A stretch of DNA of 64,000 nt from Planctomycetota bacterium (GTDB taxonomy: Bacteria > Planctomycetota > UBA1135 > GCA-002748355). How positions within the stretch are numbered: position 1 is the stretch's first letter; each line of letters opens with the position of its first letter. Under the pieces are notes generated by a model. The model made no database searches and had not been told where the DNA came from. It saw only the letters and a program-made list of their open reading frames with translations. Below are positions 1 to 35,078 of this stretch, one piece after another. The stretch is from the NCBI GenBank assembly GCA_002748355.1, contig PDSF01000049.1, positions 7,864-71,863 of the forward strand, written 5' to 3'. Made by a program: the position numbers and the translations under genes.

Positions 1-3000
1 GACTTCCATCGCGATGATGCCGCCTAGGGATAGCCCTGCCAGCTGCAGCCTGCGTCCGGGAATTTCGCGCTGCAAGATGTCGACATAGGCCTTTGCGAGT
101 CGGTCAATGGCGCTGCTCTGGAGGGTGTCGAGCTTGTCGGAGAGTACGTTTTCCTCCGCAGTATAGACACCGAAGACCGGCTGTTCCTCGCCCAGGCTTG
201 CCGCGAAGTGAAGGTAGACTCCGACGCCGAGTAAGCAGTAGACGGGAGCTCCGTCGCCGAGGTGCTGGAGTGGGACCACTGCCGAACTCTTCTTCTTGGC
301 GCCAGCGGCGATGTGCTCCGAGACACCGGCGATCGTTGGGTTGCCTAAGAAGGCGCCCAGGTCAATCAAGGTGCCCGTCGCCTCTTCGAACTCCGAAATG
401 CTGCGGATGGCTAGTAGGGAGTCTCCGCCGAGTTCGAAGAAGTTGTCGAGGAGGTCGACGCTTGGGACCTTGAGTAGGCGCTTCCAGATGGCAGCCAGTA
501 GGTAGGCAGAGTGCCCGGCTGCTTTCGGGAGATCCCGGAGTTCGCTATCGCTGGGCTTTGCCTGGGGGGCATTGTTGGGGCTGGGCCTTGCTGCCGAAGC
601 CTGTGGCGCGGTGGAGCACAAGGATGCGAGCAGGCGGCTGGGGTCTTGGACGGCGTTCGTCAGGACCTCGAGCATGCCGTTCCGGAGCCACTCGATCGTT
701 GACATGTGGAAGGTGTCGCTGTTGAAGGTCAGTCCACCGAGTAAGCCGTCGATGCCTTCCATGAACCAGAGCCCGAGGTCTTCGGTGGCGCCGTCCTGGG
801 ATAGGTGCACGGCCTCGTGGTGGAGTTTGCCCCAGCGGCGCACTCGCTCTCGGGTGTCTTGGAAGGAGAACAGCGCATGGTAGAGGGTGGTCTTCTGTTG
901 GTCCTCGCGCAAGGCGACGTCCTCGAGCATAACGTTCGAATGGTCGAGCCCGGCGGTGGCGGTTTCCCGGACCTGCTGGAGGAGGTCTAGGAAGCTGTCG
1001 TCAGCTGCGATGGTGAAAGGCAGCGGCAGGAGGCTATTGCAGCAGCCCATCAGGCTCTCGGAACCCGGCGCCTCGCGGCCGCGCAGTGGAGTTGCTATGA
1101 GCAGTCGCTGGTAACTGGAGTAGTCGTAGAGAAGTGTCGTGTAGGCGGCCAGCAGCACGTGAAACATGGTGCAGCTGTTTGCGCTCGCGAATTCATGAAG
1201 GGCCTTGGTCTGTTCAGGCCCAATCGAGATCCACTCCGTGGAACCGCTTCCGGACATGGCGGATGTCCGGTCCTGGTCCATTGGCAGTGGCGATACTGCG
1301 CCGAAGTCCTCAAGGCGCGAGCGCCAGGCGGCACTTTCGGCACGCAGCTCGGGACTTGCCTGCACCTTGCAGTGCCAGCTGGTGAAGTCGCCGTAGCTGT
1401 ACGGCAGCGCCGGCAGCTGGTGCTCTCGACCCTCGCTGTATGCCGCATAGATGGCCGCCATCTCTTGGTAAAAGACGTCGAGCGACCAGCCGTCCCAGAT
1501 GATGTGGTGAGGCATGAAGAACAGCAGGTGCTCATCTGCTGCGAGCCGGTAGAGCTTGGCTACGAACAGTGGTCCCTGAGCGAGGTCAAAGGGACGCGCG
1601 ATCGCGTCCTTCAGCTTCTGATTCAGGGTGACGCTGCGGGCTGGCTCGGGCAGCGACGAGAGGTCCTCCAGGCTCAATAGTTCGCCGCTGGCACTTGGGT
1701 GCACGACCATCTCCAGCACGCCGGCTACCCGCTCAAAAACGGTGCGAAGTGCAGCCTGCCGCTGGACGACCTCCCGCAGTGCCCGCTGCATTGCCTCCAG
1801 GTCGAATGGGCCGCGGAGTCGGTGTCCGGAAGGCTGGTTGTAGTGCGGCTGTCCCTTCAGCATCTGCTGCATGTACCAGATGCGGTCCTGGAGCTTGGTC
1901 ACTGGAGCGCGGGCTTGCTCTGGACGGCGCTCTACCGGGATCGACGCGACCTTGTTCGAGCTTGCCTCGTGCAAAGTGAGGCTCAGCGCCTGCGGCGTTG
2001 GCGATTCGAAGACGCTCCTCATGGTCAATGAGCTATTCATGGCCCGGTTCAGCTCGGTGACCAAACGCGCCGCTAGCAGTGAGTGCCCGCCTGCTGCAAA
2101 GAAGTCGACGTTCGCACCGAGGGGACCGGTTCCCAATAGCTTGCCCATCAGCTCTGCGACGAGTTGCGCCTCGTCCGAGAGTGCTGCGGCGTCGCCGCCC
2201 GCGTTTAGGTCCACGACGGGGGTTGAGGATGCGGAGCGCAGCGTGTTCCGGTCGAGCTTGCCATTTGGCAGCCGCGGGAGTCGGTCTCTTTGCACGACCT
2301 CGTGCGGCAGCATGTAGCGTGGCAGGGACACCTTCAGGTGCTGGATGATCTCGTCAGAACTGAGATCTTTGCTCGCTGCGATGTGTGCGACTAGCCGCTG
2401 CCCTTGGGCCTGATCTCCGGCAACGACGACAGCAGCTTCTGCTACGTCCGGGTGGGATAACAGCATCGACTCGATCTCGCCGAGCTCGATGCGGTAGCCT
2501 CGGAGCTTGACTTGATCGTCAGATCGGCCGAGGTACTCCAGGCTGCCGTCGGGGCGTAGCCGACCAAGGTCGCCAGTCCGGTAGTAGCGGCCGTGCACTA
2601 GGTGATCGACGAAGCGCTCGGCTGTCAGCTGGGCACGATTGTGGTAGCCCAGGGCAAGGCCTGCTCCAGAAATGCAGATTTCTCCGGGGAATCCCGCTGG
2701 CAACGAGTTGCCGGCCTTATCCAGGATGAGGATCTGGGTCTGATCGATGGGCGTTCCCACGCGGGCCGCGGTCTCCGCTTCCGAGACCTCGGCGACGGTG
2801 GACCAGATGGTGGTTTCGGTGGGGCCGTAGAGGTTCCAGAGCGAGGCGACTCGCGGCAGCAGGTCGGCGGCCAGACTTTCGGGAAGGCGCTCTCCGGTGC
2901 ACAGCGCCCGTAAGGAGCTATTGCCCGTCCAGCCGAAGTCGAGGAGCATCCTCCAGGTCGCGGGCGTGGATTGCAGGACGGTGATCTCGTGCTCGCGAAG

Positions 3001-5079
3001 CAGTCGGTCGAGTGCCGCAGGGTCTTCTGCTTCTACGCTCGTGGCGACTACGAGCCGTGCACCGTTGACCAGCGGTCCGAGCAGCTCATGCATCGAGATG
3101 TCGAAGGAGATCGTGGTGATGGCCAGCAGCGCGTCGTCCGGCCGTAGGCCCGGTCGCTTCCCGATGCTTCGTAGAAGGTTGTCCAGTGCCCGGTGCGGGA
3201 TTCGGACGCCTTTGGGTGTTCCGGTCGAGCCAGATGTGTAGATCAGGAAGGCTACCTGTTCGGCTGCGATCTCTGGTAGCTCTACTGGCGTTGCCGTTGC
3301 ACTCGAGGCGATGCAGACGATTCCTTCGGTCAGAGCTTCTTCACTGAGTTCGTCTCCGTCGACGATGGCTACAGTGCGAGAATCCTCCAACATGAAACGC
3401 AGGCGAGACGGGGGGAAGCTGGGGTCGAGCGGGAGATGGGCCGCTCCGGCGAGGTGTATCGCGGTGATGCTGACGAGGAGCTGCGGGCTTCGCGGGGTGG
3501 CTACCCCGACGATGTCGCCTGGCTGGATACCCACTCGTAGGAGTTCGGCTGCGAGGCCGCGCGCTCGCGACAGCAGCTCTCGGTAGCTCAGTTGCTCGCC
3601 GTTACCTTCGACTGCGATTTTGTCCGGAGTCTCCGAGGCGTGGGCGAGCAAGCCCGTCAGCCACGTGCCGAGCGGCTTCTCTGCGGCGTGTCCTGCCCGC
3701 TCCTTCTCATTCGGTGCCGGTTCCGGACACAAGCGGAGTGCCGCGATCGCGTCGGTCGGGTGCTCAGCTGCCGCCAGGAGCAACTGCTCAAGGCCCTGCA
3801 ACCAAGCGTCAATGATGGCCCGGTCGAACAGCGCATGTTGGAAGGTGGCTTCGATGGTCATGCCATCACTGTCTGGCGCCACGTTTAGGAATAGTTCGAA
3901 TGCGTCGGCGGCGCGTGGTACAGCACGAACGGTGCCTACAGCGTTGCCGATTCGGACTTCCTCTAGGGCTTGGTCGACGTTGACGACCACTGGAACCAGA
4001 GGCACCCGCGCCGGGTCGCCACTGAGCCCCAGGTCTCGAACCAGTTCTCCGAATCCGAAATCGTAGTGCTCGGTCGCGTCTAGAATCGCTGAACGAGCGT
4101 CGGTCACCAGGTGCGAGAAGGGGGCGGTGCTGTCGATGGAAAGGCGGAGAGGGAGCAGCTGGACGCAGTGGCCGACGAGCTGTGGGCGGTTTTCGATCCC
4201 CTGGCGTGCCACAGGCATGCCGATCGTTAGGTCGCTGTGCTCGGTCAAGCGGTAGAGCAAGGTGGCTACGCCTGCGATAAGGACAGAGACCGTGCTCGAT
4301 CGCGTTTGGGAAGCCAGAGCCTCGATTCGCGAGAGTTGTTTGGCGTCGAAGCGATGGGAGGTGAAGCCCGCCTGGAAGCTTCGAGTCGCGTTGCGTGCGC
4401 GATCGGTTGGCAGTTCAAGTGGGGCCGGAGGTGGATCACCGAGCGTAGCGCGCCACCACGACGCCGAGTCGGACACGGTTTCGGATGCTTGCCGTTCTTC
4501 CGCGTAGTCGGCAAACGATGGCGCTGCTGGGAGAATGCTCTCGTCCTCACGTTCGTAGAACTTCTGCAGTTCTTCGAGGATGACATGGAAGGACCAGCCA
4601 TCACAAACCGCGTGGTGTGCCAGCAGCAGTAACTGCGCGTGATCGGCATCTATGTCGATCCAGAACGCCCGGAATAGTGGGCCGTGGCTCAGCGACATTG
4701 GCGTCTGCATCAGCGTCGTCTGCCACTGCTGCATGGCCTCTCGGCGCAGTTCTCCTGTTTCCCCTGATACTTCGATGCGCTCTAAGGCGATAGCTGCGAG
4801 ATCATTGATGCATTGCTTGTCGAGGTCTGCAGAGAAGGTCGTTCGCAGTGCGTCGTGTCGCGCGACCACCTGCTGCAGTGCTCGCTCTAGCCGCTCGGGG
4901 TCCACCGAACCCAGCAGAGAGATGACTACGGCCTCGTTGTAGGCGCAGTTGGCGTTGTCGCTGAGTGCGGCTGCTGCCAGGATCTCGCGCTGCTCCTCCG
5001 TCGTCGGAGCAAGCTTCGAGATGGGGGCGCCTGCGAATGGGTCGTATTCAGAAGGGGGCATTTCGGTGGGGCCGTTCAT
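1..5079 (-). CDS. NRPS, C-A-PCP-C-PCP-TE (3' end beyond window; not in ORF track)
   Basis: Manual translation from ATG at 5079 (MNGPTEMPPSEYDPFAG...). Motifs: C1 HHAVCDGWS (~4600), A-domain YTSGSTGTPKG, NLYGPTETTIWS, YRTGD, NGKLDR; PCP1 FFAAGGHSLL (Ser ~2081); C2 HHIIWDGWS (~1500); PCP2 FFELGGDSLL (Ser ~419); TE GLSLG (Ser 28-30). All in one frame, and the ORF track calls no terminated ORF in that frame. Confidence 0.95.
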   Translation of the reverse strand, partial: MNGPTEMPPSEYDPFAGAPISKLAPTTEEQREILAAAALSDNANCAYNEAVVISLLGSVDPERLERALQQVVARHDALRTTFSADLDKQCINDLAAIALERIEVSGETGELRREAMQQWQTTLMQTPMSLSHGPLFRAFWIDIDADHAQLLLLAHHAVCDGWSFHVILEELQKFYEREDESILPAAPSFADYAEERQASETVSDSASWWRATLGDPPPAPLELPTDRARNATRSFQAGFTSHRFDAKQLSRIEALASQTRSSTVSVLIAGVATLLYRLTEHSDLTIGMPVARQGIENRPQLVGHCVQLLPLRLSIDSTAPFSHLVTDARSAILDATEHYDFGFGELVRDLGLSGDPARVPLVPVVVNVDQALEEVRIGNAVGTVRAVPRAADAFELFLNVAPDSDGMTIEATFQHALFDRAIIDAWLQGLEQLLLAAAEHPTDAIAALRLCPEPAPNEKERAGHAAEKPLGTWLTGLLAHASETPDKIAVEGNGEQLSYRELLSRARGLAAELLRVGIQPGDIVGVATPRSPQLLVSITAIHLAGAAHLPLDPSFPPSRLRFMLEDSRTVAIVDGDELSEEALTEGIVCIASSATATPVELPEIAAEQVAFLIYTSGSTGTPKGVRIPHRALDNLLRSIGKRPGLRPDDALLAITTISFDISMHELLGPLVNGARLVVATSVEAEDPAALDRLLREHEITVLQSTPATWRMLLDFGWTGNSSLRALCTGERLPESLAADLLPRVASLWNLYGPTETTIWSTVAEVSEAETAARVGTPIDQTQILILDKAGNSLPAGFPGEICISGAGLALGYHNRAQLTAERFVDHLVHGRYYRTGDLGRLRPDGSLEYLGRSDDQVKLRGYRIELGEIESMLLSHPDVAEAAVVVAGDQAQGQRLVAHIAASKDLSSDEIIQHLKVSLPRYMLPHEVVQRDRLPRLPNGKLDRNTLRSASSTPVVDLNAGGDAAALSDEAQLVAELMGKLLGTGPLGANVDFFAAGGHSLLAARLVTELNRAMNSSLTMRSVFESPTPQALSLTLHEASSNKVASIPVERRPEQARAPVTKLQDRIWYMQQMLKGQPHYNQPSGHRLRGPFDLEAMQRALREVVQRQAALRTVFERVAGVLEMVVHPSASGELLSLEDLSSLPEPARSVTLNQKLKDAIARPFDLAQGPLFVAKLYRLAADEHLLFFMPHHIIWDGWSLDVFYQEMAAIYAAYSEGREHQLPALPYSYGDFTSWHCKVQASPELRAESAAWRSRLEDFGAVSPLPMDQDRTSAMSGSGSTEWISIGPEQTKALHEFASANSCTMFHVLLAAYTTLLYDYSSYQRLLIATPLRGREAPGSESLMGCCNSLLPLPFTIAADDSFLDLLQQVRETATAGLDHSNVMLEDVALREDQQKTTLYHALFSFQDTRERVRRWGKLHHEAVHLSQDGATEDLGLWFMEGIDGLLGGLTFNSDTFHMSTIEWLRNGMLEVLTNAVQDPSRLLASLCSTAPQASAARPSPNNAPQAKPSDSELRDLPKAAGHSAYLLAAIWKRLLKVPSVDLLDNFFELGGDSLLAIRSISEFEEATGTLIDLGAFLGNPTIAGVSEHIAAGAKKKSSAVVPLQHLGDGAPVYCLLGVGVYLHFAASLGEEQPVFGVYTAEENVLSDKLDTLQSSAIDRLAKAYVDILQREIPGRRLQLAGLSLGGIIAMEV

Positions 5080-5080
5080 C

Positions 5081-8000
5081 TCAGAGGGGAGGATCTTGCT
5101 CCGGAAGCTCGCGGTACCGGCCTGGCTGCTCTTCGTCAGGGACGAACCATGCTACCGTGCCGTCTGGGCGCCGACCTAGCCGCGCTCCTGGAACCGGCGC
5201 CGCTGGGCCTTTTTCAGGTGTGGGCGCCGCCTCCGACTGGAGTAGGCCAACCTGCATCAGTTGGCTCACGACCTCGGACAAGGCTTGGACGAAGCTGTCC
5301 AGCTCGGCTTCGCTGTGGCTGGTGGTCAGGAAGAAGGGGAAGCCCTCCCAGATGTGGAAACCGCGATGGCGTAAGCCCGCGTAGATCAAACTTGACCACC
5401 GTTGGCCGTTTGCCACGCGCATGTAGGCCACAGAGTAGAAGGACTCGACTTGCACCGGTGCATTCAGGCGCTGCATTTCGGCGTTGATCGTTTCCGTCAA
5501 TCGGGTCATCCGCTGCCCACGCTCGGCCTGAAGCTCCGGCCCCGCTGCACGTAGGCGGCGGAGCACCGCGCGTGTCGCAGCTAGGGCGATGGGGTGGCGG
5601 ACGAAAGTTCCGGCGAAGAAGGTAACCCCGACTTCAGGGATGCTGTCGTCGCCGAACTGCCACGCCCCGCCGTCCAAAGTGTCGAGGAAGCGATGACTCC
5701 CCGCGACGATGCCGATTGGGTAGCCGCCGCCGAGGACCTTGCCGTAGGTGCTCATATCCGCGTCGATGCCGTAGAGGGCGCGGATGCCGCCGGGGTGGGT
5801 GCGGAAGCCGGTGACGACTTCGTCGAAGATGAGCGCGCTATCCTGCTCCTTGGTGATGAGGCGCAACTTGTGGAGGAACTCCTTCGGTTGCAGGGACGGC
5901 CGCCGGCTCTGCACAGGTTCGACGAGGACGCCCGCGAGCTGAGATCCGAGTTTCTCGATTTGTGCCAAGCTGGCGTCTTCACCGTAGGGGAGGACGATCA
6001 CTTCGCCGACATGGCTGCGCGGGATCCCAGGGGCGCCCGGCATACCGCGGCCGCCGGGGCCGGGGCGCACGACGACCTGGTCGTTCACGCCGTGGTAGGC
6101 ACCTTCGAACATGACGACCTTGTCGCGTCCGGTCACGGTGCGGGCGATTCGGAGTGCTGCCATGACGGCTTCGGAGCCGGTATTGGCGAAAGTGATGCGC
6201 TCGTTACCTGTCAGTTCGCAGAGTAGCTGTGCGACCTCGCCGGTGAGTGCCGACAGGGGACCGATCTCGATTCCCTTGTCCAGCTGTTCTCGAACGGCCT
6301 CAGTAACGAAGTCGGGCGAGTGGCCAAAGAAAACCGAGCCGTAGCCATTGGTGAAGTCTACGTATTCGTTGCCGTCGATATCCCAGAGTCGAGAGCCGCG
6401 CGATCGTTCTGTGACGATGGGATAAACAATCTCCTTCCACGCCGGATCGAAGCCTGAGACCACCCGCGGATCCGCCAGTTTTTCGCGGTTTGCCTGCACC
6501 GAGGCCTTGGAGCCGGCTGTGCGAGTTGCGTAGTCACGGAAGAAGTCCGCGAGGAAGTCTCGTTGCTCGGGGCTCAAGCCGTCGAGCGTGTCCGTCGACC
6601 GCTCGATCTTGGTGCTCGGCCCGGAACGTGACGGCATGCCGCCTTCCGTCGGCTCATCGTTTGGCTGCTCGTTCGGCTCGGGCTCGGGAGAGTCTTCGCT
6701 GCTTGTTTCGGTCGAAGCCGCTGTATTCGCGCCTAGCCAGGTGCTCAGCGCCCGAGGTGAGCTGTGCCGCTCCATCAGGTCGCGGAAGGTCACTTCGCAT
6801 TCGAACTCCCGGCGCAGGGCGATGGCCAGCTGCGTGAGGTCGAGGGAATCGAAGTCCAGCGCTGCCCAAGCTTCGTCGGAGTCCACGCAGAGTTCGATGC
6901 CCGAAGCCTGTTCGATAACGTCTCTGAGTCGATCGGGTATATCGGACGGGCTCTTGGAGCTACTGGAAGCTTCGCCAGCGAGGGGATCGTCGCTTTGACT
7001 TGCTTCTGTTGGTCGCCGTTCTCCGGGCTCGACCCAGTGTCGGGTCCTGGCGAAGGGATAGGTGGGCAGCGAGATGCGTTGCGCATCCTGGTGCGCCGCT
7101 GCGGGCTTCGCGAACTCCACGCCGTGTGCCCAAGCTTTAGCGACGGCTTGCAGTGTCTCAGCGAAGGCATTGCCAAAGCCCGAGTTCGGCAAGGTGGCGA
7201 TTGGGCTGCGGCTGGCTGCGACCGGGTGGAGCATTGCGAGGGCGCTGAGAGAGCCGCCAGGGCCTACTTCGAGCAAGACGCCGTCGTTGAGGGCGGAGAG
7301 ACTGTCCAGGGCGTCGGAGAAGCGAATGGGCTCTGAGATGATGCGCGCCCAGTAGCCTGGGTCGGTGGCCTCAACGTCGGTCAACACTTTGCCGAGCGAA
7401 GCAGAAATCAGGCGACGACTTGGCGCGCGGAGTTCGAGCTGTTTGATCTCCCCTTCGAGCGCCTCGGCGCAGGCCGACATCAAGGGGGAATGGAAGGGAT
7501 GGTCTCCGTTCAGAGATTCGACCCGGATACCGGCCTGTTGTAGTTGAGCTACGAGCTTGTCGACAGCGTCTGGGGTGCCGGCTAAGGCGAGTACATCCCG
7601 GGCGTGCACAGCCGCGATGCTTACGCCATCGTGGGCGATTTCGTTGAGTTCTGCCTCTGTGCAGTAGGCGGTGACGAGTCGACCCTCTAGGGCCGCTTCG
7701 GATTGTGCTCCCAAAGCTAGTAGCAGTTGGATGGCGTCGCGCAGGGAGAAGATGCCGGCGCAGGTGCCAGCTGTGAACTCTCCGAGGCTGCAGCCGAGCA
7801 GGGCATCCGCTTGCAGTCCCTGCGCTTCGAGTGAACGCGCGAGCGCGTATTCGAATATGAATAGCGCCGGCTTCGCGATCCGTAGGTCGCGGATATCGGC
7901 CTCGGCGCTTGGACACAAAAGTGCGTCCTCGATATTCCCTCCCCCGAGCTCGCGCACGATCGTTAGGCAGCGATCGATCTCGGCGCGGAAGTTCGGGTCG

Positions 8001-9649
8001 GCTTCATAGAGCGCGGCCGCCATCCCTGCTCGTTCCACACCCAGGCCGGGGAAGGTGAAATACAGCGAGCGGCTGTGTTCTGCGACCTGCTCGGCGCATG
8101 CTTGGGGCCACTCGCCAGCGGCCTCGTCCGCCGTGAGCACGAAGGCTGCGCGCTGCGGCAGTTGTTTGCGTCCGGCTCGGAGAGTGAACGCTGCGTTTCG
8201 GAGGGTTCCTGGCTCGCCTATTTGCTGCGCGAGCTGCGCACGAGCTGCCGTGATGAGTTCTCCGAGCGCGGCCGGAGTTTTCGCGGAGAAGCAGAGAAGC
8301 TCGGCTGCTGTGCCCGTGGTGCTTGCCGTCGAATGTGCTGCGGGTGGCTGCTCTAGGACGACGTGGGCGTTGGTCCCGCCGACGCCGAAGGAGCTGACCC
8401 CGGCGCGCCTGGGATAGTCCTGTTCGGGCCATCGTCGTGCGGTCGGCGAGACGTAGAACGGTGTGCGTTCCAGCTGCAGGCGAGGGTTCGGGGTCTGGAA
8501 GTGGAGGGTTGCAGGGATCACCCCGTGCTTGACGGCCAGTGCTCCCATAAGGAAGCCCGTGACTCCTGCAGCATGCACTAGGTGGCCGACTCCGCTCTTC
8601 ACCGAGCCGAGTGCGCAGGCCGTCTCGCAGCCCTCGAAGACCCGGGCGAGTGCCGCGACCTCGATGGGATCTCCCATCGGAGTTGCCGTACCGTGTGTTT
8701 CGATGTACCCGATGGTCGAGGGGGAGACCTCTGCGTGCTCGTAGGCGGCGCGCAGGACCTCGGCTTGGCCGCCAAGGCTGGGGGCCGAGAAGCTGACCTT
8801 GTCCCCACCGTCGTTATTGACCGCGAAGCCGCGCATGACTGCGTGGATTTGGTCTCCGTCGCGTAGCGCGTCCTCGAGTCGGCGTAAGACGACGACGGCG
8901 GCGCCGTCGCTGAAAGTCGTGCCGGTGCCGTCGGCGTCGAAGGGCTTGCAGTGACCGTCACGGGAGAGCATGCCGCCGGCCTCGTAGCGGTAGCCGGCCA
9001 TGGTAGGCACCGTGATCGAAGCGCCGCCAGCAAGCACGAGGTCGCAGGAACCGTTGAGCAGGGCCTTCGCTGCTTCGACGATGGCGACGAGCGAGGTTGA
9101 GCAGGCAGAACTCAAGGTTGCACTAGGGCCGTGGAGGTCGAGCTTGTGCGAAATTCGAGTCGCCAGGAAGTCTGGCTCGTTGGCGAGCGAGGTCGCGAAG
9201 TCCCCGAAGCTTTCGACGACGTCTGGCCGGGAGTCCAGGCAGTGGCGCCGGTATCGGTTCCAGTTGGCGCCGAGGTAGATTCCGACGCGGCTGTCGGTGC
9301 TGCCGCCGCCGCAGTGCCCGCTATCCTCAAGTGCGGCGTAGGCCAACTCCAGTAGCACCCGCTGTTGCGGATCCATGACCTGGGCTTCCATCGGGCTTAT
9401 CCCGAAGAATGCCGCGTCGAAGCGGTCGAAGTCGGGCATCACACCGCGGAAGGGGACGTAGGCCGGATCTTGTCGTAGCTCTTCGGGGATCGACGGGTCG
9501 AGTTCCTCTGCTGGGATTGCCTTCGCGCCTTCGCGAGCGTTAAGCATGTTTTGCCAGAGTGTGTCGACGTCCCGCGCGCCGGGAAACCGGCCCGCCATCC
9601 CCACCAGCGCGATTGCATGCTTCGGCAGCTTCTTGTTGTCGTGGCTCAA
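5081..9649 (-). CDS. Type I PKS module KS-AT(degenerate)-ACP-class III aminotransferase
   Basis: KS SACSTS, HGTAT, GHLVHAAG; AT GCSLG and HPFHS; ACP FDSL; aminotransferase IFDEVVTGFR and TYGKVLGGG. TTG start overlaps the upstream TGA (TTGA). Confidence 0.95.
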   Translation of the reverse strand: MSHDNKKLPKHAIALVGMAGRFPGARDVDTLWQNMLNAREGAKAIPAEELDPSIPEELRQDPAYVPFRGVMPDFDRFDAAFFGISPMEAQVMDPQQRVLLELAYAALEDSGHCGGGSTDSRVGIYLGANWNRYRRHCLDSRPDVVESFGDFATSLANEPDFLATRISHKLDLHGPSATLSSACSTSLVAIVEAAKALLNGSCDLVLAGGASITVPTMAGYRYEAGGMLSRDGHCKPFDADGTGTTFSDGAAVVVLRRLEDALRDGDQIHAVMRGFAVNNDGGDKVSFSAPSLGGQAEVLRAAYEHAEVSPSTIGYIETHGTATPMGDPIEVAALARVFEGCETACALGSVKSGVGHLVHAAGVTGFLMGALAVKHGVIPATLHFQTPNPRLQLERTPFYVSPTARRWPEQDYPRRAGVSSFGVGGTNAHVVLEQPPAAHSTASTTGTAAELLCFSAKTPAALGELITAARAQLAQQIGEPGTLRNAAFTLRAGRKQLPQRAAFVLTADEAAGEWPQACAEQVAEHSRSLYFTFPGLGVERAGMAAALYEADPNFRAEIDRCLTIVRELGGGNIEDALLCPSAEADIRDLRIAKPALFIFEYALARSLEAQGLQADALLGCSLGEFTAGTCAGIFSLRDAIQLLLALGAQSEAALEGRLVTAYCTEAELNEIAHDGVSIAAVHARDVLALAGTPDAVDKLVAQLQQAGIRVESLNGDHPFHSPLMSACAEALEGEIKQLELRAPSRRLISASLGKVLTDVEATDPGYWARIISEPIRFSDALDSLSALNDGVLLEVGPGGSLSALAMLHPVAASRSPIATLPNSGFGNAFAETLQAVAKAWAHGVEFAKPAAAHQDAQRISLPTYPFARTRHWVEPGERRPTEASQSDDPLAGEASSSSKSPSDIPDRLRDVIEQASGIELCVDSDEAWAALDFDSLDLTQLAIALRREFECEVTFRDLMERHSSPRALSTWLGANTAASTETSSEDSPEPEPNEQPNDEPTEGGMPSRSGPSTKIERSTDTLDGLSPEQRDFLADFFRDYATRTAGSKASVQANREKLADPRVVSGFDPAWKEIVYPIVTERSRGSRLWDIDGNEYVDFTNGYGSVFFGHSPDFVTEAVREQLDKGIEIGPLSALTGEVAQLLCELTGNERITFANTGSEAVMAALRIARTVTGRDKVVMFEGAYHGVNDQVVVRPGPGGRGMPGAPGIPRSHVGEVIVLPYGEDASLAQIEKLGSQLAGVLVEPVQSRRPSLQPKEFLHKLRLITKEQDSALIFDEVVTGFRTHPGGIRALYGIDADMSTYGKVLGGGYPIGIVAGSHRFLDTLDGGAWQFGDDSIPEVGVTFFAGTFVRHPIALAATRAVLRRLRAAGPELQAERGQRMTRLTETINAEMQRLNAPVQVESFYSVAYMRVANGQRWSSLIYAGLRHRGFHIWEGFPFFLTTSHSEAELDSFVQALSEVVSQLMQVGLLQSEAAPTPEKGPAAPVPGARLGRRPDGTVAWFVPDEEQPGRYRELPEQDPPL

Positions 9650-11427
9650 CTTGATTGTCCCGGTTGTGGTGCAGGAGCTGTGGTGTCGGCTTCGAATTGA
9701 ACGCCGCGGGAGAGTAATTCTTCGGCTTGTCTGCGCACGGTGACGAACTCGAAAACAAAGGTTGGTTCAAGCTCTCGCCCACAGGCCTGCTCCAGGCAGG
9801 TTTGTAGACGCAGCGCATCAATCGACCGGCCGCCGGTTTCGAAGAGCCCTAGGTCTACGCCCGCCGGAGCCTCGCCAAGGACCTCAGACCAGCAACGTAG
9901 TACGGTTCGGAGCCCTGGGGATGCCGCAGGAAGCTCGTGACGGGGCGCCTTGCACCAAGGAGACGGCAAGCGGTCGACATCGAGCTTGCCGTTGCTGGTG
10001 TGAGGCATCGCTTCGAGCCTCACCCAGTTGTGGGGTAGGAGCTGCTGCGGTAGTCGTTCGGCCGCCAGTTGGCGCGCGCGTGCCAGGGCGAACTCTGGGC
10101 AGACAAGGTAGGCGATCAGCCGAAGCCGCTTCGCCGGGTCCTCGCGGCAGATCACCTTGCAGTGTTGCACGTCCGGAGCGGTGGCGATTACGGCTTCGCA
10201 TTCACTTGGTTCGATGCGGAAGCCTGCGATCTTAACTTGTTCGTCGATGCGTCCGACAAACTCGAAGGCCCCGTCGGGTCGCTCGAAGACAAGGTCTCCG
10301 GTCCGGTATGCGCGGACCAGCTCCCCGCTGTCATCTTCCGTTGTTACGAAGCGTTCGTTGTCGCGGTCCGGGGCTCCGAGATAGCCGTGAGCCAGTCCTT
10401 GGCCCATGACCAGCAGCTCACCCTCCTCCCCGCGGCCGACCGGCTGCAGCGAGCTATCGACGACGCGCACTGAGGTCCCCCGCAGCGGCCATCCGATCGG
10501 GACCCTCTTTTCGTTCTCAGAAAAGCCGCGGGGGATGGGGTAGCAAGTCGTGAAGGTTGTGTTCTCGGTGGGGCCGTAGCCATTGATGAGCTGGGTCTCG
10601 GGGAGGGCTGCGAGCGCCCGCCGGACGTGGCTTGGAGATAGCGCCTCGCCACCGACTAGGAGATAGCGGAGGCCTGAGAGGCAGCTGGCGTCATCGTCGA
10701 TGACGCTGTTGAAGAGCGAGGCTGTCAGCCAGGCGGTATTGATCTGCTGGGATTCGATGATCTGTCGTAGCCCACGCGCGGTCGGCAGATCATGCTCGGG
10801 ATAGAGGACGCAGCGTCCGCCGTGCAGGAGTGGGCCCCAGAGTTCTAGAACCGACGCGTCGAAGCTCATCGGGGCGGCTTGGAGGAAGCTCAGTTCCGGC
10901 CCAAACGGCAGATAGTCCTGCTCGGAGACCAGGCGGAGGATGGCGCGGTGTGGGACGGCGACGGCCTTTGGGGTGCCGGAGGAGCCGGACGTGAACATTG
11001 CGTAGGCAAGCTGCTCTCCGCCGGTCCTTGGTGCCGTTTGTGTGGTGCTGCTTGGCCGTGCTTCGATGCGTTGGAGCTGTGGTCTCGGATCAAAGGTCAA
11101 GTGGCCGATCGCGCCCGAGATCTCAAGCATCTTGGCTCGACGCGCGGGAGGGTCCTTGGGGCTGATTGGCACGAATGCCGCGCCGAGTTCCCAGAGCGCC
11201 AGCATTGCGGTGACCACCTCGGGGTGCCGGTTCGCGACGAGGCCAACGATGTCGCCCCGCTGCACTCCCTCGCTGTCAAGGGTGTGGGCCAGCTGCCCGA
11301 CCTGGCCTGCGAGGTCTTGATAAGTCCAGGTCCTATAGACGGAGCCGTTTGACCAGGCGAGCGCGACACGAGTACGGTGGAGTGCTGCGGTCTGTTGGAA
11401 TTCGGCGGCTAGGTGTTGGTCCGGCAT
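9646..11427 (-). CDS. Stand-alone NRPS adenylation-PCP didomain (starter, Val-like code)
   Basis: FTSGSSGTPKA, FDASVLE, NGYGPTENTTF, YRTGD, NGKLD; PCP FETGGRSI. ATG at 11427 (alternative TTG 11460). Confidence 0.92.
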   Translation of the reverse strand: MPDQHLAAEFQQTAALHRTRVALAWSNGSVYRTWTYQDLAGQVGQLAHTLDSEGVQRGDIVGLVANRHPEVVTAMLALWELGAAFVPISPKDPPARRAKMLEISGAIGHLTFDPRPQLQRIEARPSSTTQTAPRTGGEQLAYAMFTSGSSGTPKAVAVPHRAILRLVSEQDYLPFGPELSFLQAAPMSFDASVLELWGPLLHGGRCVLYPEHDLPTARGLRQIIESQQINTAWLTASLFNSVIDDDASCLSGLRYLLVGGEALSPSHVRRALAALPETQLINGYGPTENTTFTTCYPIPRGFSENEKRVPIGWPLRGTSVRVVDSSLQPVGRGEEGELLVMGQGLAHGYLGAPDRDNERFVTTEDDSGELVRAYRTGDLVFERPDGAFEFVGRIDEQVKIAGFRIEPSECEAVIATAPDVQHCKVICREDPAKRLRLIAYLVCPEFALARARQLAAERLPQQLLPHNWVRLEAMPHTSNGKLDVDRLPSPWCKAPRHELPAASPGLRTVLRCWSEVLGEAPAGVDLGLFETGGRSIDALRLQTCLEQACGRELEPTFVFEFVTVRRQAEELLSRGVQFEADTTAPAPQPGQSS

Positions 11428-11551
11428 AGTCCTGTTGCTTACAGCTGATTTCTGTGCCAACTGTCTATTGCTCTCGACAGTAGTCTTAACCAGCCTTGAA
11501 GCTAGCTCGGAGCTGAAGGGGAAGGGACCGTCTTCCGAATGCTAAAAAAGC

Positions 11552-12305: not shown

Positions 12306-12432
12306 GGCCTCGGATCTCCGCTTGGTGGTGGGGGCAGGCCTTGTTTGAGGGGCTGCCGTTTGCGCTCAGGAATTCTTGAGGAAGAGGGAAACGATTGCTT
12401 GGGCGGAACGATCCTGTCCCCGGAGGAAAAAG

Positions 12433-14208
12433 GTGCAAGGACAAGCTTCGTGGCTTCGCCACTTTGCCTGCGGCCTGTTCGCCCTGCTGCTGCTTTCGAC
12501 ATCGGGCTTACTCGCTCAGGCCAGATTCCAGTCACGCTCGGCAGGGCCGGCGCGCTTCTGCATACCCGGCAAAGGGCTGGGCTCGGTGCTCGTCTACCAA
12601 CAAGGCCGGGTCCTGGGCTTTGGGGAGCTTGTGCCCCTGCTCCATGCTGCGGTGGGCCCGCTCCGAGAGTTTCGCGGCTACGTGCCAAAGGGAGGCTTTC
12701 GCTTGGGCAAGCCCGAGCTGCGCCGTGCAAAGCGTCGGCCGGGGTTAAGGGGGCAGCGTGCCTTGCCGCAGATCAGGATCGGGGCCAGCACCCATGTCTT
12801 CGAGCGAGCCGAGGGGCAGCTCTGTCCGCGCCTGCGCCTGCAGGCGCGGCTGCAGGACCTGCGCGTCTTGGGCGACGCCTATCTCTGGCCCTCGGGGGAG
12901 TGCGAGTTGCGGCTCTTGCTGGAGTTTGATGAAGAGGGAGACGAGATACCCGCGGCCTTGCCCGTGCAATGGGGAAGCCGCCAGCTCTGGCTGGTCGGGG
13001 CGCGGCCGGAGCAGGCACGGCCATGTAGGGAGATTCCTCTCGCGGGCCTTGGGCTACGACCGGGCGACGCCGTGGTGCGGACGCTGCTGAGCAGCGCTGA
13101 TCCGCTGCGTGTGGATCCGAGCTTGCGGGTGTGGTCACCGTCGCCGTTGCGGGATCTACTCGGCTTTGGCTGTATGCGCAGGACGGTGCAGGAGCTGCGT
13201 GCGCTGCGCAAGGTCGCTCGCGATCTGCGTGCTCTTGTGCAGCATTTGCCAGTCGAAGAGGATCCTCTGCATCGTGGAGACCATCGACGGCCGACCGAGG
13301 ATGATGAGATCTGGACCCACGGGGAGTTCGATCTGGGGCTGGGTCTCGAACTCTTCGCCCAGGAAGCGCAGGATACGATGCTGCATGCTCGGGCAAGAGA
13401 CGCGTGCTTGCATCTGCTCGGCCGGGACTTGCTGCCGGCTTCGAGTCTGGGCGAGCAGGGGCTGAGGCTGCCGGCCGTGCACGGAGCCGAGCATGGACGG
13501 GGGCGTGCTGCGGCCGGGCACGTCTTTGTCGAAGGAGCCCTGCTGCATGGGCTCGCCGGGGCCGAACGCTTGCTGCTAGAGCGCATCTTCGAAGTCCTCG
13601 ATGATCTCTGCGAGTTTGCGAGCGGCCGGGCCGGAACGGCCTGGTATCTGCGGGATGTCGCATGGCCCTTGCGCCAGCTCGCGACCGGCTTGCGCGTCGC
13701 GGATCGGGCGGCGTGGCGCCGGGGCGTGAAGCTGCTGCTTGTCGCTCTGCGGGAGCGCTGGGACGAGGAGCTGAGGCTTTTCGACTTTCGTGGAGTGCGA
13801 CGCGGGCAGGACTGGGAACTGGAGCTTTGGCTTTGGTGCGGGCTGGTGCTACCGGCCCTTGACCGGCTCTCGGAGCTGGGAGTAGAGGGCGCGGGGGAGC
13901 TTCGTGGGCAGTTGGTAGAGGCGATTGCCAAGCTGCCCAAGGATGGGGCTGGATTTGCGACGCATTACGCGGCGACCGAGCGGGGGTTGATCACCGCAGC
14001 CTCTGGCAAGAGGAGGAACCTCGCATGCGCCGCTTGGGTCCTCGAGGGGGTCTTGCGACGGGATCGGCGTTTCGCCTCCCGGGCGCGGCGGCTGGAGCGT
14101 TTGCTCTGTCGCAAGCTCCCCTCGGGCCAGTGGGATGCGGCGAGCGAGGCGGCGTTATTGCTGCGACTGGATTGGTTGCGACCGGGGCTCAGGGCGCTGC
14201 GACGCTAA
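12433..14208 (+). CDS. Exported hypothetical protein, possible YetA/PcRGLX-like alpha/alpha toroid
   Basis: GGAGG RBS before GTG 12433; signal-peptide-like N-terminus; WTHGEFD and GHVFVEG motifs weakly resemble the family. Confidence 0.55.
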   Translation: MQGQASWLRHFACGLFALLLLSTSGLLAQARFQSRSAGPARFCIPGKGLGSVLVYQQGRVLGFGELVPLLHAAVGPLREFRGYVPKGGFRLGKPELRRAKRRPGLRGQRALPQIRIGASTHVFERAEGQLCPRLRLQARLQDLRVLGDAYLWPSGECELRLLLEFDEEGDEIPAALPVQWGSRQLWLVGARPEQARPCREIPLAGLGLRPGDAVVRTLLSSADPLRVDPSLRVWSPSPLRDLLGFGCMRRTVQELRALRKVARDLRALVQHLPVEEDPLHRGDHRRPTEDDEIWTHGEFDLGLGLELFAQEAQDTMLHARARDACLHLLGRDLLPASSLGEQGLRLPAVHGAEHGRGRAAAGHVFVEGALLHGLAGAERLLLERIFEVLDDLCEFASGRAGTAWYLRDVAWPLRQLATGLRVADRAAWRRGVKLLLVALRERWDEELRLFDFRGVRRGQDWELELWLWCGLVLPALDRLSELGVEGAGELRGQLVEAIAKLPKDGAGFATHYAATERGLITAASGKRRNLACAAWVLEGVLRRDRRFASRARRLERLLCRKLPSGQWDAASEAALLLRLDWLRPGLRALRR

Positions 14209-14370: not shown

Positions 14371-15891
14371 CTAGCGCACGTCGAGCGGCCCGCTCTGCAG
14401 CGGTTTCCCTGGCCTGTAGACAAGGAGCGGGAGGCTCTGTCCGCGATAAAGATCGAGGATCTCTACGAACTCGCTTTCTCCGCCAGTTAAGGGTTTGCGC
14501 CCTTCGAATCCGGTCCAGGAGTGTCGTTGCTTGACCCCGAGGATCAGGTCTCCCTCCTGGAGGCCGAGTTGTTCGGCGGGGCCGCCGCGCTGCAACATGG
14601 TGACGCGCAGGGGGGTCAGTAGGGCCGGCCAGTAATGGTTGCGGCCGTAAAAGGTTTCGTGTGCGGACTTGAGCAGGGCCTTGTTGCGGTTGGTGCGCAG
14701 GGCCTCGACCAGCATGCCGGCGCGCATGTAGATCCGGGAGTTGGTACGCCCCCAAGGGACGAGGGTGAGCTGGTGCTTGGTCTGGCCGCGCAGGATTTCG
14801 AGGGGGATTTTGTCGCCGGCTTCTCTGCGGATCAGCGCTCGGCCGAAGTCCTGCAGCCCCGCGAGCGCCTTGCCCCCGATGCTGGTGATGCGATCGCCGT
14901 GGCGGAGACCTGCGCGCCAAGCAGGGCCACCTTGGGTGACGTTGGCGATGCGCACGCCTTTACTGTGCTCCTCGACGCGCAGTCCGGTCCAAAAGCGGTC
15001 GATGCTGTCGTAGCGAAGCAGGTTGGACTGGAAGACCTCTTTGACTCGGTTGACTGGGATGGCGAAACCGATGTTCTCCGAGGCCTTTTGGGTCAGCGTA
15101 TTGATTCCGATGAGGCGTCCGGTGATGTCGAGGAGAGCTCCGCCGGAGTTGCCGGGATTGATGGCAGCGTCGGTCTGAAGCAGGCCTTCGAAGACGATGG
15201 GCTCGGGTTCTCCTCGCGGATGAATGCGCAGGGAACGGTGGGTTGCGGAGAGCACGCCGGCGGTGACGGTGTTGACCTGACCGTGTGGGTTGCCGATGGC
15301 GACCACGGTTTCGCCGACCATGAGCTGGTCGCTGTTGCCTAGTTGAATGGGGGGGAAGCGGCGCTCTTTGCCGTCCTTGGGCTCGATCACGAGCAGGGCT
15401 AGGTCGTTCTCGTGCGAGCTGCTAAGGACGCGGCCTTCGTAGACCTCTCCATTGCGGAGACTGATGCGGCAGTAGAAGTTCGGACGGACGTGGTCGCGGA
15501 CGACGTGCCAGTTCGAAATGACGAGACCTTCCTCCTCGACGATGACCCCGGAGGCTTCGCCTCGTTTCACGAAGACCGGCTTACCGTCCCGGAGCTGTCG
15601 CAGCTCCCCGACTTGGATGTTGACGACCGAGGGGCCGGCTACCTGCACTGCGCGCACGACCGGGGTGACGCGGGTGTTGATTTCGGGGCCTGTGCGTTCG
15701 GTGCTCATGCGCCCGCGCTGTTGGGTCTTGGCGGTTTCGCTCCGAAGCAGTGGGGATGGGGCCGGCTTGGAAGCTAGCGCGGGTTTGAGGCTGGCGCGGG
15801 GGAGCAGTACGGCGCCAGCAACGGCGCCGACGAGGAAGCTGGCGACAAGGAGGGACCGGGTTCGAATCATCTTGGAAGCCTTCTTCGTCAT
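14371..15891 (-). CDS. HtrA/DegP-like trypsin serine protease with PDZ domains
   Basis: SNWHVV, NDLALL, INPGNSGG catalytic triad; two GGPA..GL..GD.I PDZ motifs. Confidence 0.93.
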   Translation of the reverse strand: MTKKASKMIRTRSLLVASFLVGAVAGAVLLPRASLKPALASKPAPSPLLRSETAKTQQRGRMSTERTGPEINTRVTPVVRAVQVAGPSVVNIQVGELRQLRDGKPVFVKRGEASGVIVEEEGLVISNWHVVRDHVRPNFYCRISLRNGEVYEGRVLSSSHENDLALLVIEPKDGKERRFPPIQLGNSDQLMVGETVVAIGNPHGQVNTVTAGVLSATHRSLRIHPRGEPEPIVFEGLLQTDAAINPGNSGGALLDITGRLIGINTLTQKASENIGFAIPVNRVKEVFQSNLLRYDSIDRFWTGLRVEEHSKGVRIANVTQGGPAWRAGLRHGDRITSIGGKALAGLQDFGRALIRREAGDKIPLEILRGQTKHQLTLVPWGRTNSRIYMRAGMLVEALRTNRNKALLKSAHETFYGRNHYWPALLTPLRVTMLQRGGPAEQLGLQEGDLILGVKQRHSWTGFEGRKPLTGGESEFVEILDLYRGQSLPLLVYRPGKPLQSGPLDVR

Positions 15892-20100: not shown

Positions 20101-20398
20101 CGGTGCCGACATCGAATTCGAGAGTGACGGTCCCTCCTCCCTCGACCGCCGTGCTGATCATCTGGCGCAGGCCGGGGACACTTTTCAATCGCTCCTCTTG
20201 TTCCTCGAGGATCTCGCTTTCGATTTCTTGCGGAGCAGCGCCCTCCCAATGAGTCGTGACCGTGATCAGCGGTATGTCGACATCAGGTGTCAGTTGGATG
20301 GGCAAGCGAGCGATCGAGAGACCGCCGAAGAGGACCAGCAGAAAGACGCCGACGAGAACCGTGACCGGTCTGGCGACGACGAAACGGATTGGGTCCAT
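17183..20398 (-). CDS. RND efflux transporter permease (AcrB/AcrD/AcrF family)
   Basis: 1071 aa; GMVVDNSIVVLENI, GTVVNNAIL, RVRPIFMST motifs. Confidence 0.95.
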   Translation of the reverse strand: MDPIRFVVARPVTVLVGVFLLVLFGGLSIARLPIQLTPDVDIPLITVTTHWEGAAPQEIESEILEEQEERLKSVPGLRQMISTAVEGGGTVTLEFDVGTDIARKLFEVDEKLQQVPSYPENVDKPSITSGETKGSNAIAWFILEVTPDSPVDPAELPYYRTLIVEEVQPIMGRSQGIAGIGLYGGVEREVQIRVDPFKLAARQITPSQLRTAIRTTNLDLSGGSIDSGKFSALVRTSGKYKTLAEIRETVIVKRKGQPVFLGDVASVDYGHKDAQAVVRNMSKPAIAMSATKQSGTNLISVMEDLQRNVDFINKEVLRPKGIQLRQVYDQTEYVFSAIGLVTQNLWVGGLLAMGVLLLFLRSLRSTLVIAVAIPTSVIGAFLGLEAMGRNLNVVSLAGLAFAVGMVVDNSIVVLENIYRHRQMGKGAFEAAYDGATEVWGAVVASTLTTLAVFLPVIFVQEEAGQLFRDIAIAISSAVATSLAISVLFIPMASARLSPTQRRNKEGRKRRFSPLRWLIGLGERFTKQVSRSVAWINSHVALQLGTVLGITFSSLLLAWLLLPPATYLPDGNRNLVLGFLIPPPGYNSNEFLSIAEQVESTLEPFYVEKADELPPELRRPAWFRGNGEIPGISQFFFVTFNNTAFMGAKSPDASNVPPLAQLLMYAGNSIAGTRAFALQSSLFSPGLSSGNSIDLEITGPDLDVINRTAGMVLGRCAGLFGPRSTRPEPTTFGLESPEYRIILDQARARDLGLNVQELGFFVRAMSDGAIISDYRTEGLTLDVKLMPPQAQSEIAESLDQLPIWTDLGRTVPISAVARVEETTAPTTIRRLEEQRAVRLTITAPPKMPLSVAMAKLQEEILSPMREAGQVPASVKFRLAGNADKLAATGAALQWNLILAILITFLLLSALFESFLYPIVIMLSVPLAGVGGVVGLDLTSWWTGQQLDILTMLGFVILIGTVVNNAILIVHQALQNIRNEGMSLDDAIQDSVRTRVRPIFMSTSTSVLGMMPLVLFPGAGSELYRGLGSVVVGGLIASTLLTLVLVPTLFHLFYSAQERGFAWLGSRSSASQS

Positions 20399-21652: not shown

Positions 21653-21779
21653 TTCCGTCACCTGTAGCCTTTCGTGCGAAAAGAGGGCGGAGCAGCTTAG
21701 CAGGCAGGTTGCCAGGCACAAAACGCGGCTTTCGAGACGGCCCATCGAGCTTGCTGCCTCTGGCCGCTACCCTGCCGGG

Positions 21780-23000: not shown

Positions 23001-23035
23001 ACTTCAGCCGGTCGGGACTAAGAGGGAAATCAACA

Positions 23036-28246: not shown

Positions 28247-28397
28247 CGCTGCTCTCGCTCGGGACGGCGTCGGAGGTCTCTTCTCGACGCTAGCAGCGTG
28301 GCGCGGCTGGATCCCGCACCTTTCGGCGCGGGATGACAAAGACCTCCCTGCTTCCGAGCCGCTCCTCTGTCACTGGAGGGCCGTTTGCGAGGCCCTG

Positions 28398-34917: not shown

Positions 34918-35078
34918 GAGCAATCGGTGGTTCTTTCAACATCCCGTCAGAGTCCTATCTACTCTTCGGTCCTTGTGGGGGATCTGCAAGCGTGTCGGCG
35001 CGGGGTCCTGCATATGGAAGCAGGCAGAAGTAAGCGGCATCCGCGCGACCCCTGGGCTGGCCTGCTAAGGTTCTCGCC

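Follow-up and report, generated by a model that had tools for sequence, protein, structure and literature searches.

What is made by the small assembly line at one end of this stretch of planctomycete DNA, and by what chemistry? The stretch (the window, 64,000 nt, G000:C52:7864-71863, where G000 is the host genome and C52 the contig) carries three back-to-back open reading frames (ORFs) on the minus strand that fill positions 1-11460. They encode, in turn, an adenylation domain with a peptidyl carrier protein (A-PCP); a ketosynthase, an aberrant acyltransferase, an acyl carrier protein and an aminotransferase (KS-AT*-ACP-AMT); and a protein with two condensation domains, a second A domain, two further carriers and a thioesterase (C-A-PCP-C-PCP-TE). 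These genes plausibly form a self-contained hybrid of a nonribosomal peptide synthetase (NRPS) with a polyketide synthase (PKS), and the chemistry proposed in a preliminary description of this DNA is likewise plausible. We lean, without great assurance, towards a route in which valine would start the chain, one malonate would extend it, beta-amination would give a 3,4-diamino-5-methylhexanoyl unit, and one or two glycine-like residues would be added before release by the TE. The data themselves consist only of domain content and active-site residues, from which we infer every chemical step.

The preliminary description had called the three genes tightly coupled, with the domain order given above and with no ketoreductase (KR), dehydratase (DH) or methyltransferase (MT) domain, and all of this was borne out. 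The TTG start of gene 2 overlaps the TGA stop of gene 1 in the sequence TTGA (AGTTGAGC), and the TGA of gene 2 is followed by one G and then the ATG of gene 3, a gap of 1 nt (CTCTGAGATGAAC). In genes 1, 2 and 3 alike, GC content by codon position follows a high-low-high pattern. Domains were assigned with Pfam profiles (E<=0.001) and with NCBIfam models at their curated cut-offs; Pfam returned the domain order as described, and no KR, DH or MT family, adh_short included, was found in the three proteins at this threshold. Outside AT*, the catalytic motifs are all intact in genes 1-3. A scan of the operon for promoters and terminators gave 0 promoter-like sites, and 9 terminator-like sites where 9.0 were expected.

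Gene 1 (9646..11427, minus strand, as are all cluster features given below) encodes 593 aa from an ATG at 11427 that is preceded at 5 nt by AGGA; an in-frame upstream TTG at 11460 offers an alternative start (9646..11460, 604 aa). Its A domain (9985..11400; AMP-binding, 8.7e-76, and AMP-binding_C) scores 373.4 bits against the amino-acid adenylation model TIGR01733, and the single A domain of gene 3 scores 401.5 bits, both above the cut-off of 317.4. The gene 1 PCP lies at 9721..9906 (PP-binding, 8.1e-08, residues 519-580), with its serine in GGRSID (nt 9817-9834).

For comparison of substrate codes and of gene order, species-representative genomes were scanned with two AMT motifs. At least 600 stretches were found, of which 598 of 600 were confirmed as relatives; the best 80 were examined and joined by three metagenome loci, and twelve domain pieces of the window were placed on the resulting 83 loci by tblastn. 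The ten positions that govern A-domain specificity were located by core motifs (235, 236 and 239 in FDxxxx; 278 three residues before the Pro of the P-S/T motif; 299 and 301 before GE; 322 in NxYGPTE; 330 and 331 after PTExx; 517 in NGK) and carried by alignment to the A domains of these loci. This mapping, which we take to follow from the structure of GrsA-PheA, yields strings recognised as canonical codes, among them DFWNIGMVHK, DVQFIAHVVK, DLTKIGHIGK, DVWHISLVDK and DILQLGLIWK, and is thereby supported, since wrong positions would not yield them.

By this mapping Asp235 and Lys517 are present in both A domains of the cluster. The gene 1 code is DALWLGGTFK, which we take to be a valine code, paper searches on the code strings having given nothing usable. 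An A domain stands directly upstream of the KS in 57 of the 83 loci, and all 57 keep Asp235 and Lys517; their codes are Val-like in 27 and Pro-like in 15, and DALWLGGTFK itself, found in 12, is the commonest starter code. The earlier proposal of a Val-like amino-acid starter is thus supported. A fatty-acyl starter loaded by a fatty acyl-AMP ligase (FAAL), as in iturin, was considered as well and is ruled out, as gene 1 exceeds the amino-acid adenylation model. The gene 3 code, DIHQLTLIWK, agrees in 8 of 10 positions with DILQLGLIWK, presumably a glycine code. An A domain follows the AMT-C junction in 52 of the 83 loci, with a Gly-like code in 26, and in nine loci a Val-like starter is paired with a Gly-like second residue.

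Gene 2 (5081..9649) encodes 1522 aa from its TTG start. The KS (8225..9616; ketoacyl-synt, 1.6e-64, with Ketoacyl-synt_C and KAsynt_C_assoc) has the triad Cys183 (ACSTS), His319 (ETHGTAT) and His356 (KSGVGH), which is invariant in 29 aligned relatives. It is followed by AT* (7259..8059; Acyl_transf_1, 2.4e-36), by the ACP (6734..6934; PP-binding, 9.6e-11, residues 906-972), whose Ser935 lies in FDSLDL, and by a class-III aminotransferase that resembles glutamate-1-semialdehyde aminomutase (5240..6424; Aminotran_3, 4.2e-47, residues 1076-1386). The lysine expected to bind pyridoxal phosphate (PLP) in this domain is Lys1304, in YGKVLGGG, and both Ser935 and Lys1304 are conserved in the family alignment. 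Conservation continues past the AMT into a C-terminal tail (5108..5188, GARLGRRPDGTVAWFVPDEEQPGRYRE): the motif PPxxGARLG(R/K)xxxGxxAWFVPDxxxPGKYxxV ends all 29 aligned family proteins, whatever their phylum or AT type, and no Pfam family matched the tail. It is probably a docking, linker or hand-over element to the next C domain.

Gene 3 (1..5079) is open at the window edge. In accordance with the suggestion that sequence beyond position 1 be retrieved, the gene was followed on the contig, where it runs a further 465 nt, to contig position 7399, and encodes 1847 aa in full. The Pfam Condensation profile matches over two stretches (8.7e-152). The better of these is C1 (3721..5010, residues 24-453), with HHAVCDG at residues 155-161; the second is C2 (approximately 610..1917), with HHIIWDG at residues 1191-1197, so that both have the HHxxxDG motif. 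Between them lie the A domain (2257..3645; AMP-binding, 7.6e-81) and PCP2 (approximately 1960..2187), a PP-binding stretch with its serine in GGHSLLA (nt 2071-2091). PCP3 (310..498; PP-binding, residues 1528-1590; serine in GGDSLLA) stands in a terminal module that has no A domain, and the carrier serines of all three PCPs of genes 1 and 3 are intact. The N-terminal part of the TE occupies 1..219, with GLSLGG at nt 19-36, and the remainder, including the His of GDHTS, lies on the contig outside the window. In the full protein the TE is complete (Thioesterase, 1.3e-13, profile positions 15-222 of 226). Four gene 3 relatives (P0256, P0283, P0302 and P0318) have the TE motif GLCAGG, with Cys for Ser; Cys-type TEs have been linked to strained-ring release.

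There is thus one A domain for two C-PCP units in gene 3, with a single A3 core motif in 1847 aa and about 30 residues between C2 and PCP3. The arrangement is not peculiar to the window. When 17 gene 3 homologues of similar length were aligned (from Planctomycetota metagenome-assembled genomes (MAGs), Rhodanobacteraceae, Vitreoscilla and further sources), each of the 17 had one A domain only, and their C, PCP and TE motifs were conserved. A-less C-PCP modules also accompany canonical ATs in loci L035, L038, L045, L050 and L076. Trans-loaded A-less modules are known from SyrB1/SyrE, in the SyrE/SyrB1/SyrC type, which gene 3 resembles in its C-PCP-TE without an A domain. No conserved gene, such as one for an aminoacyl shuttle, is found next to the cluster in the window or in the three-gene counterpart described below (L015); SyrC-like hydrolases were not sought genome-wide. 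The simplest assumption is that the neighbouring A domain of gene 3 loads PCP3. It was also considered that C2 might be an epimerisation domain, and this was dropped: C2 lies between two PCPs with the TE next, and the motifs that we take to mark epimerisation domains were not seen.

The order amino-acid A-PCP, KS-AT-ACP-AMT, C-A is widespread over many phyla and is not unique to the window genome. The loci come from Bacteroidota, Acidobacteriota, Verrucomicrobiota, Pseudomonadota (Variovorax, Lysobacteraceae), Cyanobacteriota and Planctomycetota, and the aminating protein occurs in free-standing form (about 1600 aa), fused to A-PCP (about 2200 aa, e.g., in Corallococcus) or fused to C-A-PCP (about 2500 aa). 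In many loci the A-PCP shares a reading frame with the KS, as does the AMT with the C domain in L045; these fusions fix the order of hand-over as gene 1, gene 2, gene 3. In the window, gene 3 opens with its C domain 1 nt after gene 2, and an NRPS C domain is in this way positioned to receive the aminated chain.

The same split into three genes is found in L015, a MAG of candidatus Brocadiaceae, where each domain best matches its window counterpart (36-65% identity). A metagenome contig of 8.4 kb (L120) has the window order, at 62-83% identity, up to the contig end. No conserved neighbours are common to the window contig and the flanks of L015, so the conserved unit is the three genes alone. 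Within the phylum the cluster is patchy. None of 400 other genomes sampled matched the whole AT-ACP-AMT query; the matches were mostly HemL-like proteins of about 35% identity, together with a few PKS-AMT proteins in which the AMT part was 41-53% identical, and in two genomes (G200 and G303) the AT part matched too, at 33%. A fragment of a Mutator-family transposase lies directly downstream of gene 3 (a 223-aa ORF, L005:6802-7473, plus strand, on contig C52 outside the window); it matches only the C-terminal part of the profile (240-341 of 379, E 1.7e-10). Because of this fragment and the patchy distribution, horizontal transfer is suggested.

The AT of the cluster is odd. The preliminary description had marked it as aberrant, justifiably so: it reads GLGVE for GQGSQ, GCSLGE for GHSxGE, ALGAQS at RGxxM (with no Arg117) and DHPFHS for SHAFHS, and of the motif set of a canonical malonyl-CoA-specific cis-AT only the Ser (Ser621) and the last His (His720) remain. 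A search with the gene 2 protein gave thousands of KS-AT-ACP-AMT proteins, from which 118 with all three large domains were kept for comparison of the AT. GHSxGE is present in 106, GCSLGE in 11 and neither in one; the GCSLGE set comprises the window protein plus the ten relatives nearest to it. Among the related loci the AT is of the canonical GHS type in 75 of 77. In a midpoint-rooted tree the 11 GCSLGE proteins form a clade with support 1.0, nested among canonical sequences. The tree was built from KS and AMT sequence, with the AT left out, so the AT has no part in defining this group.

Ser621 and His720 are kept in all 11 proteins of the clade. New invariant residues have appeared (Asp588, Cys620, Leu622, Asp685 and Ile770), basic residues occur at 593 (H/K), 717 (R/H) and, in part, 682 (H/Y/W), and the position of Arg117 is variable (S/L/V/I/G/A). 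Within the clade the KS and AMT are 64-83% identical, and the KS motifs are invariant in 11/11; the AT is full length and 41-63% identical. For pairs with 65-75% KS identity, AT identity is 44% in the clade (38 pairs, AT/KS ratio 0.65) as against 61% in the canonical group (971 pairs, ratio 0.86), whereas AMT identity tracks that of the KS in both groups. Our reading of these sequence patterns is that AT* no longer recognises malonyl-CoA in the usual way yet stays under some constraint. It may now be a scaffold with loading in trans, have a rewired site for malonyl or accept a new substrate. A likeness of AT* to acyl-hydrolases or to loading ATs was also sought, and rejected: in comparison with solved structures the best matches are ordinary cis-AT domains (5yda, 5.1e-40), with PksD and the AVES1 loading AT far lower. 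When AT* was searched against 1.84 billion representatives, giant multi-AT PKSs dominated through their summed scores, and no member of the subclade was among the best 150 matches. GCSLGE was also seen in a metagenome sequence (L121:9806-13038), where two AT-like domains stand in tandem before a KS and the motif lies in the first; the context is unrelated and identity to AT* is 25-27%.

The route that we favour would run as follows. Gene 1 would load its own PCP with valine, or with a closely related branched-chain amino acid, after adenylating it. The KS of gene 2 would take over the valyl group and condense it with malonyl-ACP to give 4-amino-5-methyl-3-oxohexanoyl-ACP. Malonate would preferably reach the ACP in trans through the host FabD, as it does in MycA through FenF, a rewired AT* being the second choice. 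The PLP-dependent AMT would then turn the beta-keto group into an amine, giving the 3,4-diamino-5-methylhexanoyl unit, which C1 of gene 3 would couple to the Gly-like residue that the one A domain of that gene activates. C2 would add the residue carried by PCP3, in the simplest case the Gly-like residue again, loaded by this A domain as well, and the TE would free a small, strongly cationic pseudo-tripeptide.

Several points weigh against this route. The GCSLGE clade replaces the Gln of GQGSQ, the Thr and Gln of TxxxQ, the His of GHS, the Arg and Met of RGxxM, an Asn, and the Ser and His of SHAFHS, at positions that are 100% conserved in 106/106 canonical relatives. With the canonical malonyl-binding residues gone, polyketide extension is not assured and hinges on an unproven route for loading the ACP. 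The alpha-amine of the starter is not acylated, there being no C or F domain before the gene 1 A domain, and the gamma-amino thioester could, on chemical grounds, lactamise before C1 acts; the diamino product is something that we infer from sequence. The earlier claim that a small residue comes next holds insofar as the gene 3 code is Gly-like, as in half of the loci with an A domain at this place, but it is weakened by the exact code. Nine of the ten closest gene 3 relatives have DILQFGL(I/V)WK, from which the window code stands alone; it differs from DILQFGLIWK at 3 of 10 positions, and its His at position 239 occurs in 0 of the 52 loci and in 0 of the 17 homologues. The substrate may therefore not be glycine.

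Several alternatives were weighed and rated lower than this route. In the first, which we consider unlikely, AT* would be a neo-functionalised transferase that moves an aminoacyl or other non-carboxylated acyl group, for example from the gene 1 PCP to PCP3, with malonate coming from FabD. The invariant Ser621/His720 dyad would fit such an enzyme, as would the clade-specific invariant residues of the pocket (Cys620, Asp588, Asp685, Thr660 and Ile770, with Asp716 in 9/11). The AT is full length, and its 41-63% identity argues against free decay; a cationic substrate would be in keeping with the lost Arg and the acquired acidic residues, and the assembly line has an A-less module in need of loading. 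However, the basic residues at 593, 717 and 682 could equally rescue malonate binding, the Arg117 position has acquired no new fixed residue, and the low AT/KS identity ratio of the clade (0.65, as against 0.83-0.86 in the canonical group) fits relaxed constraint on the AT. Whether the odd AT goes together with the A-less module was examined, and no support was found, as A-less modules also accompany canonical ATs; the two oddities thus appear unlinked.

In the second, which we also hold to be doubtful, the AMT of the family as a whole would act on a carrier-bound vicinal amino-ketone formed from an alpha-amino acid and malonate, and would either carry out an on-line 1,2-amino shift (4-amino-3-oxo to 3-amino-4-oxo) by way of the diamine or stop at the vicinal diamine; beside it, the planctomycete subclade would have an AT rebuilt for a new job. 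If either were true, both the building block and the carrier-bound PLP reaction would be undescribed for assembly lines. Somewhat apart from it, the AMT of the cluster might act as an aminomutase that passes via the 3,4-diamine to a 3-amino-4-oxo acyl chain and needs no external amine donor, a possibility to which we attach little weight. All 57 starter A domains are of the amino-acid type, which implies an amine vicinal to the keto group throughout the family. HemL works on just such a vicinal amino-carbonyl compound, glutamate-1-semialdehyde, and its mutase mechanism runs via a diamine. The best-scoring named NCBIfam models for the AMT are those of glutamate-1-semialdehyde 2,1-aminomutase (TIGR00713, 9.1e-76; NF000818, 5.7e-75), but both matches are far below cut-off (255 as against 527 bits), and the window domain differs from HemL in being embedded in a PKS, where it would act on a carrier-bound chain. 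Moreover, AMTs of the MycA type generally resemble this aminomutase, yet MycA is described in the accessible part of one survey as a transaminase that uses Gln (PMC3870968), so the likeness is unspecific.

That the cluster is a non-productive relic, with a dead and unreplaced AT and no polyketide extension, seems to us improbable. The loss of all canonical malonyl-binding residues, the faster evolution of the AT, the transposase fragment that abuts gene 3 and the patchy distribution (0/400 genomes of the phylum with a whole query match) would be in keeping with decay. However, the frames of 604, 1522 and 1847 aa are intact, the catalytic residues outside the AT are all in place, and the remodelled state is shared by a clade of 11 proteins with KS and AMT 64-83% identical, and by two further loci; such conservation would be unexpected without selection on a product. 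Least credible of all is that gene 1 serves as a trans loader of PCP3 while the KS is primed by another acyl-CoA or acyl-ACP. The A-PCP is indeed free-standing in the subclade, and the last module lacks an A domain, but most relatives have the orthologous A-PCP in one reading frame with the KS, and its code is often DALWLGGTFK there too; translational coupling links gene 1 to the KS gene, and the conserved three-gene unit has no other loading domain or ligase.

How does the favoured reading compare with known systems? McyE and NdaF, of the microcystin and nodularin pathways, have KS-AT-ACP-AMT followed by C-A-PCP, and end the Adda chain, which has a phenylpropanoid-type starter, with a working malonyl AT. 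By this general description the domain order is the same, but the window module stands directly after a module that loads an amino acid, and its AT departs from the canonical motifs. In statine-type NRPS-PKS junctions (A-PCP, then KS-AT-KR-ACP, as in bleomycin and didemnin) the KR reduces the ketone, and the amine is already acylated. The combination of an amino acid and one malonate to give a gamma-amino-beta-oxo chain would be common to these and to the window, where an AMT replaces the KR and the starter amine is free.

In MycA, ItuA and BmyA (mycosubtilin, iturin and bacillomycin) KS-ACP-AMT passes a beta-amino chain directly to an NRPS C-A-PCP. According to the accessible text of two papers, the MycA AMT aminates the beta position (PMC3870968, PMC3039948) and the second ACP of MycA is malonylated in trans by FenF (PMC3039948); this separate transacylase sets the best precedent for an assembly line with an incapable AT of its own (PMC3039948, PMC3870968). 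The sequence features of a MycA/McyE-type aminating module are present in the window: the KS triad, a carrier serine directly before a class-III AMT with its PLP lysine, and a C domain next; by analogy, beta-amination would follow. The differences are also plain. MycA uses a fatty-acid starter via an acyl ligase and has no AT domain, whereas the window has an amino-acid A starter and a full-length, remodelled AT; it is split into three proteins and would give a beta,gamma-diamino acid rather than a beta-amino fatty acid. In place of the FAAL starter and seven-residue NRPS of the iturin type, the window has one A-containing and one A-less NRPS module.

Related layouts are tabulated, without products, in a 2013 bioinformatic survey (Milano et al., PMC3870968, Table 2, as accessible to us in part). 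They include A-CP-KS-AT-CP-PLP1 in Pedobacter heparinus (C6XWU5, predicted Nrp-Mal-Gly-Pk), KS-AT-CP-PLP1 in Thiocapsa marina (F9UAS6, predicted Nrp-Nrp-Mal-Gly) and a C-CP directly after the PLP domain in Thiorhodococcus (G2E5C9). The window resembles these layouts and belongs in addition to the small GCSLGE subclade, a canonical GHS AT being the rule among the relatives examined. It had been stated earlier that the split architecture could be matched to no characterised cluster. No such match was found, but the architecture is itself widespread and similar layouts were already listed in the survey; our literature searches, with subscription journals and MIBiG outside their coverage, found no characterised product for the family or for any amino-acid-primed aminating module. 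In its accessible part, a 2026 preprint (PMC13252402) gives the starters of cyanobacterial beta-amino polyketides as alpha-keto acid, aromatic acid and fatty acid, and an amino acid is not listed there. Judged by sequence alone, then, the window cluster is a variant of the MycA/McyE aminating module from an orphan, widespread family.

If the favoured reading is true, peptides of this family are assembled around a vicinal (beta,gamma) diamino acid that originates from valine, proline or another amino acid, a type of building block that we did not find in the accessible literature. With at least 600 stretches in species-representative genomes, a single product structure would annotate many orphan clusters, and the three-gene form, at 11.9 kb, is compact enough to be expressed directly in a heterologous host. 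The rebuilt AT constitutes a natural experiment on what becomes of a cis-AT PKS module after malonyl recognition is lost.

The host genome (3.95 Mb in 71 contigs, 90.8% complete) was described earlier as coming from an understudied lineage, which is fair: nothing in the protein collection is more than 83% identical to the GroEL of the window (38545-40212), whose nearest relatives are in Planctomycetota MAGs. A look for sequencing runs, RNA included, turned up no listing. Three ATs are present in the genome, namely AT*, a FabD-size gene on C47 (a 306-aa frame) and one within a PKS on C49, and the L015 genome carries an equivalent trio, one of them inside a 2165-aa frame. A single phosphopantetheinyl transferase, of about 239 aa, is encoded on contig C29, and no MbtH-like protein was found in this 90.8% complete genome. 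Contig C49 holds a second thiotemplate locus, with a 2176-aa PKS of the order KS-AT-KR-DH-ACP-TE (L123:2640-9170, plus strand) and a 1586-aa NRPS (L124:2348-7108, plus strand) that begins with a formyltransferase and has a luciferase-like monooxygenase inserted into an A domain.

Past the transposase fragment, on the downstream side of the cluster, lie sulfatase-like and GT2-like genes. Upstream of gene 1 there is a divergent 610-aa ORF (12376-14208, plus strand), rich in Arg and Leu and with coding-like GC by codon position; no Pfam family matched it, and as a lead only, an Atlas model (TM 0.65-0.69, pLDDT 0.53) suggests that it may be GH127/PcRGLX-like. Beyond it, on the minus strand, are genes for a DegP-like protease with PDZ domains (14371-15891), an AcrB-type resistance-nodulation-division (RND) pump (17183-20398) and a CusB/HlyD-type membrane-fusion protein (20402-21745). 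These three were considered as accessory genes of the cluster and dropped, as they are not conserved beside the L015 cluster. Apart from GroEL, the genes noted in the remainder of the window are likewise of housekeeping type: a free-standing class-III aminotransferase (22940-24250), an acyl-CoA carboxyltransferase (26636-28339), a histidine kinase (31734-33260), an M61 glycyl aminopeptidase (33232-34923) and an ADP-forming acyl-CoA synthetase-like protein (48289-50529).

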